Shown in pieces: positions 6,418 through 41,781 of a stretch of DNA of 44,358 nucleotides (position 1 is the first letter of the stretch; the number at the start of each line of letters is the position of its first letter). Below the pieces are notes generated by a model. That model was not told where the DNA came from. It worked only from the letters and a program-made list of their open reading frames with translations, and ran no database searches. The stretch is from an uncultured Chloroflexota bacterium. Its GTDB lineage: Bacteria; Chloroflexota; Chloroflexia; Chloroflexales; Roseiflexaceae. The position numbers and the translations under genes are program-made. The DNA is taken from positions 1-44,358 of the forward strand of contig CALLZL010000290.1 of the NCBI GenBank assembly GCA_937859575.1, read 5' to 3'.

Positions 6418-6506
6418 TCCCAGCAAACGCCAGCTCCTCGTGTCTTCGTTCACCCCGAATGTAACATGACACCGAGGGGCATCGCTCCCGAAAAGAGAAC
6501 TACACT

Positions 6507-19924: not shown

Positions 19925-20437
19925 ATGGCTGATGAGCGCCCACGATCACGGGGCGGCGACACCGACGCCCGTTCGATGCTTCATTCGTTACTGGCTACCT
20001 CGCCGGCGGCTGTCGTTGTGCCGATCCAGGCCGGCGATGGTGTCGATAGTGTGGTGGCCCGCGTGTATGCGGCCGGTGCTACCCATGTGCAGTTGATCAT
20101 TCCGGCCGGTACCGCAGAATTTCAATCACCAAACAGCTTTTCGGCACTGCGGGTATTGCTCGAAGCTGCCGGAATCACCATCACTGCCGTCAGCCCTGAT
20201 CCACTCGTAATTGCGGCCGCCCGGCGCGGCCGTGTCGATGTGATTGGTGTCGAAGCGACGGCCCGGCCGCCAGTGACCAGGCCGATTGAAGAAGCACCGG
20301 CCGACAACCGCTCGCGTTATACCGATCTTGATGATGCCGATGCCGATCTCTACGCATCATTTGATGATCTCTCGGATGCCATCCAGACAGCACCACCAAC
20401 ACGCCGCCCGGTTTCCAGCGCCGACGCGGGCCGATGA
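19925..20437 (+). CDS. Hypothetical protein (acidic C-terminal tail)
   Basis: 170-aa ORF with protein-like composition and ATG preceded by AGGGTGGA. No family recognised. Confidence 0.5.
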   Translation: MADERPRSRGGDTDARSMLHSLLATSPAAVVVPIQAGDGVDSVVARVYAAGATHVQLIIPAGTAEFQSPNSFSALRVLLEAAGITITAVSPDPLVIAAARRGRVDVIGVEATARPPVTRPIEEAPADNRSRYTDLDDADADLYASFDDLSDAIQTAPPTRRPVSSADAGR

Positions 20438-20441
20438 GTCG

Positions 20442-21818
20442 GTGCGGCCCCCCCAGCCGGGGCGGCAGCGGCCAACCGCCCCGGTTGGGCGGGTGCGGTC
20501 GCTACGTGATGATGCAGCGACCCTTGCCGGTGATCGAGGGCGAGCGGTGCGGCAACCACGCACAGCCGGCATTCCATTGCCGTTGGTGCTGCTGATTGTG
20601 GTGGCGCTGATCGCCCTGGTACTGGCTGTCTGGTATGCTGCGGCACGCGTAACGGTGTCGGTTGCCCTGCCGCCGGCCGCCACCAGTGAGCAGACCTTCA
20701 GCAACGAGGTGATTCCGTATTCAGCTGCCGGATCAACCGACAATGCGGCGGCGCTCCAGGCGGCAGCAGTGGCTGCTGAAGCCGATTTCAGCGCCGACGG
20801 CACAGTTGCCGGCGAGACGCTGACACCGATCGGCCGGGCGCAGGGCATTATCACAATCATCAATACGGTAGCGCAGGCGATCGAGCTTCCCGAGGGAACC
20901 GACCTGATTGCAACCAACAGCGAGGGGCGTGAAGTACGATTTGCGCTTGATGTCCCGGCGGTTGTTCCGGCAGCGACGACCGTCAGTGATCTGAGCGGCA
21001 CACGTACCAACTATGGATCAATCGATGTAGCCGTTACTGCACGTTCACCGGGGAGCCAGTCGAATGTCGGGCAGGATGCGATCAAGCAGATCCTGATACC
21101 CGGCCAGCAGCCGATCATCAGTGATCGGAGCAACTTCATCATTCGCCACCAGCCGATTGCTGGTGGGAGCGAAGAGATGCTGCGGATTGTGACCGAGGAG
21201 GATGTGCGCCAGGTGCTTGGCGAAGCCCTGACCGGGCTGTACAACATTGGGGTACAGCGGCTCCGGGCACAGATCGACGAGCGGCAGTTTGCCATTGATC
21301 CGAATACGATCTACCCCGGCCCAGCCGATCTGGCGACACCCAGCGGCTATGATGCACCGATTATTACGCCGGGTGTCGGCGAACCGGCCGATGCCGATGG
21401 GCGGTTTCGTGTGACCGTGCAGGCACGGTTTAGTGCGCTGGCAACACCTGCCGATCGGTTGATCGGCGAGCAGTTGCAGGAAGTGGTACCGCAGTATTTC
21501 ACACAACGGCCGGTGCCGCCATGCCCGGCGGTTAGCCGGCCCGGGTTCAGTGTCTCGAACTGGCGTTGGGATGGTGAACGGCTGACGATCGATGGCACTG
21601 TTGCGTGTACAACTGAACGTAGCCTGCCGCCCGAAGTGCTCGACGATGTGCGCAGCACCCTGGTTGGGCAGACACGTGAGGCTGCCGAGTTGCGTATGCA
21701 GGATCTGCAGCGGCGCGGCATGATTGGTGAATTCGCATTGCCGGAAGGGGATCGGCTGCCGGGCTTCGACTGGCTGATCAGGGTTGAGGTCGTAGAGAGC
21801 ATGGCTGTCGGGCAATAG
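20442..21818 (+). CDS. Hypothetical single-pass membrane protein; extracytoplasmic part is reminiscent of baseplate-J-like domains
   Basis: TM helix IPLPLVLLIVVALIALVLAVWYAA followed by about 400 aa (GIITIINTVAQAIELPEGTDLIA...IDVAVTARSPGSQSNVG). Start is uncertain: GTG 20442 is the first start codon after the upstream stop. The ORF-track start at 20286 overlaps the preceding ORF by 150 nt with implausible sequence. Confidence 0.5.
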   Translation: MRPPQPGRQRPTAPVGRVRSLRDDAATLAGDRGRAVRQPRTAGIPLPLVLLIVVALIALVLAVWYAAARVTVSVALPPAATSEQTFSNEVIPYSAAGSTDNAAALQAAAVAAEADFSADGTVAGETLTPIGRAQGIITIINTVAQAIELPEGTDLIATNSEGREVRFALDVPAVVPAATTVSDLSGTRTNYGSIDVAVTARSPGSQSNVGQDAIKQILIPGQQPIISDRSNFIIRHQPIAGGSEEMLRIVTEEDVRQVLGEALTGLYNIGVQRLRAQIDERQFAIDPNTIYPGPADLATPSGYDAPIITPGVGEPADADGRFRVTVQARFSALATPADRLIGEQLQEVVPQYFTQRPVPPCPAVSRPGFSVSNWRWDGERLTIDGTVACTTERSLPPEVLDDVRSTLVGQTREAAELRMQDLQRRGMIGEFALPEGDRLPGFDWLIRVEVVESMAVGQ

Positions 21819-21851
21819 GTGCGTACACCGTAACGGAGAAGCGAGCAGGAG

Positions 21852-22286
21852 ATGGAGCTGGGGCGGATTGTGGCGCTCGATATAGGCGGGCGACGGATCG
21901 GGGTGGCGGTGAGCGATCCGACCCGCACGCTGGCATCGCCATTGACGACGCTGCATGCACAGCCGCGTAGCACCGTGTTCAGCCGCATTCGCCGGCTGCT
22001 TGAAGAACAGGAAGCAACCGCGCTGGTTGTCGGGTTGCCGGTTTCGCTCAATGGTGCAATCGGGCCACAGGCCAGGGAAGTGCAGCAGTTTGTCGAAGAG
22101 CTCCGGCCATTGATCGAGATCCCGATCCATTTTGTCGATGAGCGCCTGACCAGTGTGGCTGCCGACCGGATGATGAGCGAGCTCGGTATTCGGCCTGAGA
22201 AGCGCAAGGAGCGGATCGACCAGGTCGCGGCATCGCTGATCTTACAGGATTTTCTGGATGCCGATGGACGCAACCGGCGAGAGTGA
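21852..22286 (+). CDS. ruvX: Holliday-junction-resolvase-like putative pre-16S rRNA nuclease RuvX/YqgF
   Basis: IVALDIGGRRIGVAVSDP, VVGLPVSLNG, VDERLTS. Size 144 aa. Confidence 0.92.
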   Translation: MELGRIVALDIGGRRIGVAVSDPTRTLASPLTTLHAQPRSTVFSRIRRLLEEQEATALVVGLPVSLNGAIGPQAREVQQFVEELRPLIEIPIHFVDERLTSVAADRMMSELGIRPEKRKERIDQVAASLILQDFLDADGRNRRE

Positions 22287-22294
22287 GGCACTGC

Positions 22295-24800: not shown

Positions 24801-25520
24801 TTACTGGCGCAGCAATGAATCGAAAATCTGCTGCCAGACGCCGAAAGGTTGAGCACCAACGACAAGCTGGCCATTGACGAGGAACGACGGCGTACTGCGA
24901 ATTCCTTTGCTGAGCGCTTCACGCATATCGTCCTCGATGGTTGGCGCATGGCGATTGCTCTCGACACAGGCTCGCAGCGCATCGGTGTCGAGGCTAAGCT
25001 CGCGGGCATAGCCGAGGAAGACCTCATAATCGGCGGCACTACCGCTGCGCCATTCGCGGATCGGCATGCCACGGAAGATGCGCTCGTGCATAGGCCAGAA
25101 CGCCCCCTGGTCGGCGGCACAATTGGCGACGTGCGCCGCCAGCAGCGCCCCGGGGTGAATATCGGTGAGCGGGAAATCGCGATAAATGAACAAGACCTTG
25201 CCAGTCGCGACATACTGCTCGATAATTTGCGGTTTCGTCTCACGGACGAACGATTCACAGAATGGTCACTGGTAATCGCTAAACTCGACCACCACAATCG
25301 GTGCGGCAGGATCGCCGAGTGTTCGGGCTCCACCGGGGCTTTCGGCTGCAACCGCGCTGGTCGGTACACTCGCCGGCTGCGCCACCAGTGGCGTAGTAGT
25401 CGTGCGGGGTGGCGTGCCTGATGCGGTGGTGGCACGTGGCGGGGCTTCGGGGCCGCATGCAACCGCCAGCAACCCCAGGAAGAGCAGCGTCAGTAAGCGT
25501 ATCGGTGTAGATGCGTGCAT
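24801..25520 (-). CDS. DsbA-family thiol:disulfide oxidoreductase lipoprotein with in-frame TGA at the first CxxC cysteine (candidate selenocysteine; alternatively a pseudogene)
   Basis: ORFs 25266..25520 and 24801..25193 are in the same frame. Reading through TGA (25266-25268) gives ...IVVVEFSDYQ-U-PFCESFVRETKPQIIEQYVATGKVLFIYRDFPL...FWPMHERIF...TPSFLVNGQ, a contiguous DsbA-like thioredoxin fold. N-terminal signal peptide with lipobox-like LLAVAC. Confidence 0.65.
25230..25252 (-). promoter_or_regulatory. SECIS-like stem-loop downstream of the in-frame UGA
   Basis: mRNA: UGA + 13 nt, then CG-UUCGUC-[CGUGA]-GACGAA-(AC bulge)-CG. Perfect 6-bp core stem at 25245-25250/25234-25239. Apical loop G-U begins at +23 after the UGA. 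Confidence 0.45.
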
Positions 25521-25580: not shown

Positions 25581-26090
25581 TCAACGCTCATAGAGTTGGA
25601 TCTGATCGGTTTCACGGCGGGTAAAGGTTCGCACCAGGGTATTACTACCGTCGTCGCCGCAGTACGGGCATACCGACCACGAAAGGTCGATTGCGCGATT
25701 ACATCCGCCGCAGCGGCGGCGTAGTGCGGTATGGCAATGTGGGCAAAGGATGAAATCCGGCTCAACACCACGCTGACATCCCGGGCAGACGAATTTTTCT
25801 TCGAGATCGCGGCGCATATACTCTTCTTCGAGGGTGCGTTCGTATTTTTCGGCCAGGGTTTCGCGTGGGCGCAGGATCAGATGGAGCACAACCCCGGCGA
25901 ACGGCAGCAGGAGCGCCAGCGACACCGCCAGCACCTGAACCGTAATATTATCACTGCGATTATTGATGTCGCGGTATGTCCAGAGCACTGAGGCTGCCCA
26001 GAGCAAAACCAGATATGCCGCGATCATCCAGCCGATGGCAGTAACGATCGGCACGAGATTGGTAATAATAGCCCGAAAATCCAAACCCAA
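25581..26090 (-). CDS. Membrane protein with PLD-nuclease-N-like TM pair and C-terminal double zinc ribbon
   Basis: Two TM helices (IVTAIGWMIAAYLVLLWAASVLW; VLAVSLALLLPFAGVVLHLIL), then CPGC...CPHC...CGGC...CPYC. Confidence 0.7.
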   Translation of the reverse strand: MGLDFRAIITNLVPIVTAIGWMIAAYLVLLWAASVLWTYRDINNRSDNITVQVLAVSLALLLPFAGVVLHLILRPRETLAEKYERTLEEEYMRRDLEEKFVCPGCQRGVEPDFILCPHCHTALRRRCGGCNRAIDLSWSVCPYCGDDGSNTLVRTFTRRETDQIQLYER

Positions 26091-40605: not shown

Positions 40606-41781
40606 ATGCAAGAAGCTGTTATCGTCTCTGCAGTACGGACGGCCGTCGGCAAGGCACCGCGCGGCGCGTTGCGCACCGTACATCCGACCGACCTGGCGGC
40701 CGGTGCGATCCGGGCGGCGGTCGAGCGGTCGGTAGGGCTGGATCCGGCCATGATCGATGATGTCATTATCGGTTGTGCCATGCCCGAAGCCGAGCAAGGG
40801 CTCAACATGGCGCGGGTGGCGGCAGTACGGGCCGGTATACCGGTTTCGGTGCCAGCACAGACGGTCAATCGTTTCTGTTCGTCGGGGTTGCAGACGATCG
40901 CTCTGGCGGCGCAGCAGATCATGAGTGGTATGGGTGAGGTTGTGGTGGCCGGTGGTGCCGAGAGCATGAGTGCGGTGCCAATGACCGGGCATCACTTTGC
41001 GCCGAATCCGGCACTGGCCGAACTCAACCCGGATCTCTACCTCGGCATGGGCCTGACGGCCGAGAATGTCGCCCGGATGTACGAGGTGAGCCGCGACGAG
41101 CAGGATGCCTTTGCGCTGCGTTCGCATCAGCGGGCGCTGGCGGCGATCGAGGCCGGGCTGTTCCGCGATCAGATCGTGCCGATTGAGGTCGAACAGGTAT
41201 GGGTGGAGGATGGTGAACGCCGGCATCTGAGCTACACCTTCGACAGCGACGAAGGCCCGCGACGTGATACATCAGCGGCGGCACTGGCCAAACTGAAGCC
41301 GGTCTTTGCCGCCAATGGCAGTGTGACGGCCGGAAACTCCTCACAGACCAGTGATGGTGCGGCTGCGGTGGTGGTAATGAGCCGTGCGCGTGCCGAGGCG
41401 CTCGGATTACAGCCGCTGGCGCGCTTTGTTTCGTTTGCGGTGGCCGGTGTGCCGCCCGAAATCATGGGTATCGGGCCGGTCGAAGCCGTGCCGAAGGCGC
41501 TACGCCAGGCCGGCCTGACGATTGGCGATATTGATCTGGTTGAGTTGAACGAGGCATTTGCGGCACAGGCCCTGGCGGTGATCCGCCGGCTCGAAATCGA
41601 TGAAGCGATCGTGAATGTCAATGGTGGTGCGATCGCGCTCGGCCACCCGCTTGGCTGTACCGGTGCCAAGCTGACGGTGCAACTCATCCACGAGTTGGCC
41701 CGGCGTGGTGGGCGTTACGGCCTGGTAACGATGTGCATCGGCGGGGGTATGGGGGCAGCCGGGGTGTTTGAGCGCCTGTAG
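40606..41781 (+). CDS. fadA: Acetyl-CoA C-acyltransferase (thiolase)
   Basis: NRFCSSGLQ (active-site Cys), [34 protein letters not shown]. Confidence 0.93.

Follow-up and report, generated by a model that had tools for sequence, protein, structure and literature searches.

A candidate selenocysteine-containing DsbA-like lipoprotein gene with a conserved SECIS-type hairpin in an uncultured Roseiflexaceae bacterium

A 44,358-nt stretch of DNA (contig CALLZL010000290.1; its whole length is called the window below) from an uncultured Roseiflexaceae bacterium of the Chloroflexota carries, at 24801..25520 on the minus strand, a gene interrupted by an in-frame TGA codon. We conclude, with a probability of roughly 0.88, that this is one intact gene for a predicted selenocysteine (Sec)-containing extracytoplasmic thiol-disulfide oxidoreductase of the DsbA/BdbD/MdbA type (Thioredoxin_4, COG1651). 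The Sec reading was adopted because of comparative data, namely a TGA codon shared among relatives, a hairpin specific to the TGA forms, synonymous constraint and covariation, and not because of the single sequence.

An in-frame UGA at the first cysteine position of a thioredoxin-fold active site

The candidate selenoprotein coding sequence is complete, with 239 codons from ATG 25520..25518 to TAA 24803..24801, and the TGA at 25268..25266 (codon 85) is the sole internal stop in this minus-strand frame. It had been listed as two open reading frames (ORFs), 25266..25520 (84 aa plus the TGA) and 24801..25193, which lie in the same frame and are separated by a gap of 72 nt; the second piece was listed as starting at TTG 25193, 24 sense codons past the TGA. 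Read-through yields a 239-codon product, ...VVVEFSDYQ-U-PFCESFVRETKPQ..., with the active site FSDYQ-U-PFC, in which the UGA (25266..25268, minus strand) occupies the first Cys position of a CxxC motif and the predicted selenocysteine would be the N-terminal nucleophilic residue of U-P-F-C. This codon is aligned with the first Cys in 59 Cys homologs and with TGA in 19 further species. The codon of the resolving Cys88 of the UxxC motif (UGU, 25257..25259, minus strand) is invariably TGY in all TGA forms. A sequence-only reading of the same DNA had proposed that the two ORFs share one frame split by this TGA, and that the stop sits on the redox-active first Cys with the resolving Cys kept; both proposals hold, the first from the single internal stop in one frame and the second from the alignment with the 59 Cys forms.

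Pfam matches to the read-through protein, Thioredoxin_4 (PF13462; 9.6e-31, residues 65-233) and DSBA (1.9e-13), both cross the TGA, and the closest solved structures by PDB sequence match (residues 61-238) are MdbA, BdbD and DsbA. Together, the Pfam and PDB sequence matches place in this protein the features of the DsbA/BdbD/MdbA type: a thioredoxin fold with a helical insertion, an xPxC motif at a helix start, and a cis-Pro loop. The Thr-Pro of the cis-proline loop (RSTPSF; 24888..24893, minus strand), typical of thioredoxin-fold oxidoreductases, is invariant in alignment A1 (T140 and P141), and two cysteines, C134 and C185, are likewise invariant in the alignment, which suggests that they pair as a structural disulfide. 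TGA terminates 12 of the 34 confident genes in the window; because it is an ordinary stop codon there, any recoding must be local and does not reflect a genome-wide reassignment of UGA.

The same TGA codon recurs in diverged relatives

A scan of GTDB species representatives yielded 80 loci. The TGA falls exactly on the first Cys in 19 of these, which, with three contigs from other assemblies of the same organism, gives 22 TGA loci (20 distinct sequences); the 59 other loci resolved at this codon all have TGY and thus encode Cys. TGA forms are found in Chloroflexota, Acidobacteriota, one Rokubacteria metagenome-assembled genome (MAG), Nitrospirota and one MAG labeled Cryosericum, and the coding sequence is conserved on both flanks of the TGA in orthologs and paralogs alike. 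A pattern scan of JGI metagenomes recovered at least 120 contigs, among which at least 116 sequences are distinct; every one of them lies in this protein context.

Among the protein-search matches listed, approximately 30 database "proteins" of 130-152 aa begin just past the CxxC motif, and this shared start marks them as TGA forms that gene callers have cut short. Two such relatives, one on an 11.3 Mb contig and one from an AL-W-type Chloroflexi bacterium, are syntenic with the window, and both have TGA at the same codon together with the hairpin described below. Their common gene order is pdxS, pdxT, a SpoIIIAA/R3H ATPase gene, tmk, a cyclic-di-AMP receptor gene, a double-zinc-ribbon protein gene and then the split gene.

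The three contigs from other assemblies (ENA ERZ27240678, NCBI GCA_035324475.1 and ENA ERZ794913; L001-L003) were located through the neighboring S58 peptidase. They are 99.8-99.99% identical to the window overall, and the 720-nt gene is 100% identical in all three, TGA included. In all of the assemblies the gene callers cut the gene into pieces of 84 aa and 130 aa.

In a neighbor-joining tree, Sec forms fall into three clades with Cys forms nested inside them. The nearest tree neighbors of the window gene are Roseiflexus Cys forms; the Roseiflexus MAGs L004 and L005, which of the GTDB genomes stand closest to it on the tree, carry TGT or TGC at this codon. The tree pattern fits repeated replacement of Sec by Cys.

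A hairpin downstream of the UGA is specific to the TGA forms

A hairpin resembling the core of a selenocysteine insertion sequence (SECIS) lies at 25234..25250 on the minus strand, with the stem UUCGUC (25250..25245), the loop CGUGA (25244..25240) and the stem GACGAA (25239..25234). It overlaps the codons for F-V-R-E-T-K; its loop begins 21 nt past the UGA, and the G-U of the loop is at +23/+24. A possible extended SECIS (25228..25259, minus strand) adds a lower stem around the core, UGUG (25259..25256) with CGCA (25231..25228), which is present in the minimum free energy (MFE) structure and paired in 64-94% of 138 sequences. The 5' side of this lower stem includes the Cys88 codon, and since the lower-stem bases are also set by the Cys and Pro-Gln codons, pairing (UGYG/CGCA) is inseparable from codon constraint. 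An alternative outer pairing through CG/CG pairs, proposed in the sequence-only reading, is also possible.

The bacterial SECIS (bSECIS) model specifies an apical loop of 3-9 nt, an upper stem of 4-16 bp, a G in the first two loop positions, a UGA-to-loop distance of 16-37 nt and an MFE of −7.5 kcal/mol or lower (PMC13188914). The window hairpin falls within all four bSECIS constraints quoted in that source: its loop has 5 nt with G-U at positions 2 and 3, its stem has 6 bp, its spacing is 21 nt and its folding free energy (dG) is −8.3 kcal/mol. Folding bears out the UUCGUC-CGUGA-GACGAA hairpin with G-U at +23/+24 that had been claimed from the sequence, and its spacing of 21 nt is, as had been proposed, inside the bacterial range of 16-37 nt (PMC13188914). 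The window contains the 13-mer CGTCCGTGAGACG a single time, where 0.06 occurrences would be expected.

Every TGA form has (A/U)CGUC-CGUGA-GACG(U/A) at an equal distance from the UGA. Of the 20 TGA forms, 17 retain every one of the five core pairs, which none of the 59 Cys forms does (Fisher p = 1.4e-14), and the 12-mer GTCCGTGAGACG was found in 22 fetched loci, all of them TGA forms, and in zero Cys loci. Constraint extends to synonymous positions: the codons for V-R-E-T (+7 to +10) are fixed in the TGA forms as GTC (20/20), CGT (19/20), GAG (18/20) and ACG (20/20), while Ala, Asp, Pro and Gly residues that are likewise invariant in this alignment are each encoded by two to four different codons. 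Across 138 distinct sequences the outermost core pair, 20:34, covaries, with A-U in 89, U-A in 14 and U-G in 1 versus U-U in 5 and A-A in 2 (chi-square p = 8e-17 for the association, not corrected for phylogeny). RNAalifold on 20 sequences recovered the 5-bp core only. The sequence-only reading had suggested aligning orthologs for Cys or TGA and for the hairpin; in that alignment the TGA recurs at the same codon in diverged relatives, and the hairpin is found only with TGA.

Three Cys forms from Blastocatellia/Acidobacteriota (L018-L020) lie inside a Sec clade. V-R-E-T is unchanged in them, and around it they still match the Sec form L023 at most nucleotides, but the hairpin shows synonymous drift from GUC CGU to GUU CGG/CGC; they resemble products of a recent change from Sec to Cys in which the SECIS is decaying.

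A second UGA site is found in multidomain lipoproteins of the Anaerolineae type (L098, L162, L163, L182 and L156), which have two or three tandem DsbA-like domains and two in-frame TGAs, in the motifs U-P-Y-C (domain 1) and U-P-A-C (domain 2; the second TGA of L098 is at 2512 on the gene strand). At the spacing seen in the first site, the second-site UGA precedes (A/G)UCGCC-CGUGA-GGUGAU, in which the loop is unchanged but the stem and the encoded amino acids differ. The stem differences are compensated (U-A to C-G, and G-C to G-U). The multidomain relatives L031, L106 and L173 have Cys in domain 2. We regard the second-site hairpin as the best independent evidence for the RNA element.

In L058 (2086 and 3064), L094, L125, L130 and L164, on Acidobacteriota-type and other contigs, paralogous TGA-form genes stand side by side in tandem, and a separate SECIS core accompanies each of them.

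Points against selenocysteine insertion and alternative readings

Several observations weigh against the Sec reading. The case for selenium incorporation is sequence-based in every member of the family. No selA, selB, selD or tRNA-Sec was found within the 44 kb window or in any fetched flank: ARAGORN reported no tRNA-Sec in the window and 50 loci, and Pfam analysis of essentially all large window ORFs detected no SelA, SelB, SelD, VKOR or DsbB, only housekeeping, fatty-acid and glycosyltransferase genes. The hairpin alone is unremarkable, since at a dG of −8.3 kcal/mol (z = −0.75) 39 of 200 shuffled sequences fold equally well or better; its significance therefore comes only from comparison. 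Because the core is mostly invariant, classical covariation is confined to a single pair, to which the second-site comparison can be added. No Rfam family matches the whole window at gathering thresholds or 25150-25320 in E-value mode, a null result that is uninformative, as we know of no Rfam model that would report this type of bacterial SECIS. Finally, the best NCBIfam match by far, NF041057 ("Rcas_1661 family thioredoxin-like (seleno)lipoprotein"; 1.3e-49, residues 26-235, searched with Cys substituted for Sec in the query), scores 169.0 bits, below its curated equivalog cut-off of 190.

A residue other than selenocysteine might be inserted at the UGA, either by near-cognate Trp or Cys read-through at a leaky UGA-C or by delivery of a Cys-charged tRNA(UCA) through a SelB-like factor, a "recoding with Cys" system that was reportedly described by Mukai and colleagues in 2017. 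UGA-C is a weak termination context, and C follows the UGA in all TGA forms (UGA-CCN); the inserted residue, moreover, cannot be told from sequence. However, simple leaky read-through needs no conserved SelB-type bSECIS hairpin at canonical spacing, the neighboring curated family is annotated as Sec-containing by NCBI, and interchange of Sec and Cys at this redox position is a classical selenoprotein signature (PMC1088965). We consider non-Sec recoding very improbable. It is similarly improbable that the module of UGA and CGUGA hairpin does not always insert Sec, whether through use in these Chloroflexota of such a SelB-like factor with Cys-charged tRNA(UCA) or as a selenium-dependent switch that yields either the 84-aa lipopeptide or the complete enzyme. 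RNA-dependent Cys biosynthesis in Chloroflexi (PMC5424206) was also considered and is unrelated to UGA recoding.

The sequence-only reading had named as its alternative a pseudogene, in which a recent nonsense mutation changed TGY to TGA in an ordinary DsbA-like lipoprotein gene. A single base change would suffice, the closest GTDB relatives carry TGT or TGC here, and the sel genes were not seen in the window or the fetched flanks. Yet at least 20 species-level genomes, drawn from several phyla, share this TGA, as do at least 116 distinct sequences from metagenomes; each half of the gene is intact and conserved without other stops or frameshifts, and the hairpin is held at synonymous sites with every TGA and with no Cys form. 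Independent identical nonsense mutations together with a co-occurring RNA element are not credible. The comparative data effectively refute the pseudogene, which we regard as very improbable, and the recurrent TGA, the conserved flanks and the TGA-specific hairpin uphold the earlier proposal of a candidate selenoprotein.

Two separate real products, an 84-aa lipopeptide ending at the UGA and a C-terminal protein starting at TTG 25193, would agree with public annotations, which list both pieces, and at any Sec-UGA some ribosomes will be terminated by RF2 (PMC4513850). However, conservation within the fold is highest in the stretch encoded by the 24 codons that separate the TGA from the TTG (PFC...VRETKPQIIEQYVATGKV), the called starts of truncated homologs vary from genome to genome, and a thioredoxin fold without the CxxC strand-helix would be non-functional, so that independent products are highly implausible. 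A sequencing or assembly error, with TGC or TGT as the true codon, requires a difference of only one base and has negligible probability, because the 720-nt sequence is identical in the window, ERZ27240678, GCA_035324475.1 and ERZ794913, and an error at the TGA would not create the SECIS-specific codon choices that are also present.

Relationship to known selenoprotein families

As its score lies under the NF041057 cut-off, we file the window gene as belonging to a sister clade of that family and not as a member. The syntenic orthologs and the Roseiflexus castenholzii Cys homolog P0005 are also under the cut-off, at 116-184 bits. Domain 1 of the metagenomic L098 protein is above it, at 192.4 bits, and has the same TGA and an identical 12-nt SECIS core (TGA-CCG-TAC-TGC...GTCCGTGAGACG) with spacing identical to that of the window gene. 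The window protein resembles NF041057 in its Thioredoxin_4 fold, its predicted lipoprotein-type N-terminus and the U or C that precedes xxC, but its clade is not captured by the NCBI rule and is split or truncated in public annotation. The window gene adds a sister clade to a known kind of selenoprotein and has the same recoding signal. It is nearly certain that members of this sister clade score slightly too low for NF041057 and that public annotation systematically splits or truncates them; because its score is just under the curated cut-off, the clade is recorded as a fragment of 84-110 aa plus a "DsbA family protein" of 130-152 aa.

"DsbG-like" (COG1651, UxxC) and "DsbA-like" (COG2761, UxxC) selenoproteins have been catalogued since 2004-2006 (PMC1088965, PMC1794560), and a 2026 review equates "DsbG-like" with NF041057 (PMC13188914). 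The sequence-only reading had called an exported, lipid-anchored selenoprotein unusual. This was overstated, as NCBIfam curates a "(seleno)lipoprotein" family and "DsbG-like" UxxC selenoproteins have been described since 2004-2005 (PMC1088965, PMC13188914). The "DsbA-like form 1" selenoproteins (PF01323, COG2761/FrnE; Zhang et al. 2005, PMC1088965) share with the window protein a UxxC motif in a DsbA-type thioredoxin fold and a SECIS immediately downstream. Membership in that group was rejected: FrnE structures match weakly (1.1e-5, in the C-terminal part only), and Thioredoxin_4 fits far better than DSBA.

The Cys-only proteins matched in the PDB are Corynebacterium MdbA (4pwp; 9e-19), Bacillus subtilis BdbD (3eu3; 7e-13) and the Staphylococcus aureus lipoprotein DsbA (3bci; 8.5e-6). 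All three are anchored to the membrane on its extracytoplasmic side, as is predicted for the window protein, and share its cis-Pro loop, and MdbA has the same Pro-Phe dipeptide (C-P-F-C); unlike the window protein, they have cysteine at the nucleophilic position in place of the predicted Sec.

The hairpin is likewise comparable to that of Escherichia coli fdhF and the bSECIS model (of Zhang and Gladyshev, summarized in PMC13188914), being a stem-loop just 3' of the UGA, inside the coding region, whose small apical loop carries a G followed by a U toward its 5' end. It differs from fdhF-type SECIS elements in being shorter (a 5-6 bp core), in having the loop CGUGA and in its family-specific core, which is near-invariant across phyla. 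In the fdhF numbering, a further difference is that the loop of the window hairpin starts three nucleotides further from the UGA than the fdhF loop.

Protein architecture and a possible mechanism

The N-terminus reads as a candidate signal peptide with a lipobox, MHASTPIRLLTLLFLGLLAVA-C22-G (25455..25520, minus strand), in which the codon of the predicted lipidated Cys22 is at 25457..25455. LLAVA-C22 fits the PROSITE-style lipobox pattern, and Chloroflexota relatives retain L-[AVL]-[AS]-C-G at this place. Residues 23-68 form a low-complexity linker rich in Pro, Thr and Ala (25317..25454, minus strand) between the lipid anchor and the catalytic domain; its length and sequence are variable among orthologs.

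By the established bacterial mechanism, SelB carrying Sec-tRNA(Sec) would bind the CGUGA loop, notably its G-U, and selenocysteine would be delivered to the UGA in competition with RF2. The signal peptide and lipobox would then direct export and lipidation at Cys22, and the Pro/Thr-rich linker would tether the catalytic domain to the external surface of the membrane. There, a Sec85-Cys88 selenenylsulfide/selenol-thiol couple may exchange disulfides with secreted proteins, as in the Cys-only MdbA, BdbD and S. aureus DsbA.

Gene neighborhood and other observations in the window

Gene order around the selenoprotein gene is conserved across distantly related Chloroflexota. Between 22295 and 31452 the window shares with L084 and L085 the order pdxS, pdxT, a gene of unknown function, SpoIIIAA-like/R3H ATPase, tmk, CdAMP_rec, double zinc ribbon and Sec-DsbA, continuing with an S58 peptidase or AAA_33 kinase gene, ruvX and, further on, alaS. 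The double-zinc-ribbon gene (25581..26090, minus strand) lies directly upstream of the selenoprotein gene. In one of the other assemblies (L003, 1299-1377) an unrelated 79-nt stretch replaces 159 nt that encode zinc-ribbon cysteines, corresponding to 25630-25790 of the window, and the protein is truncated; in another (L002, approximately 6493-6502) a run of N is found at the same place. Strain variation or, alternatively, local misassembly would account for this difference.

The region 19925-22291 of the window, which is flanked by alaS and the AAA_33 kinase gene, contains several long overlapping ORFs on both strands without a Pfam match (19925..20437 and 20286..21818 on the plus strand, and 21045..22130 on the minus strand), and the equivalent position in L085 encodes a 690-aa minus-strand protein without a Pfam family. 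At 40606-41781, a 391-aa thiolase was clustered at 90% with Gammaproteobacteria rubredoxins of 41-54 aa, which is probably an artefact of database clustering or look-up and not biology. A scan of the window for TGA-split ORF pairs, based on GC content at third codon positions, returned only off-frame artefacts and ordinary gene boundaries; it missed the selenoprotein gene too.

Implications

The candidate selenoprotein gene was recognized correctly from raw sequence alone, and its analysis exposes an annotation gap, in which a whole clade of DsbA-like selenoproteins from Chloroflexota, Acidobacteriota and other bacteria is fragmented in databases. The near-invariant core GUC-CGUGA-GAC, 21 nt past the UGA, is a simple DNA signature by which such genes may be recovered. 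Current understanding of Sec decoding is unchanged by the finding; the second-site variant would provide a naturally occurring set of mutants with which to study SelB-SECIS recognition in bacteria other than Proteobacteria and Firmicutes. For the Roseiflexaceae, and thereby for the Chloroflexota, the predicted selenoprotein would place selenium in extracytoplasmic disulfide chemistry.

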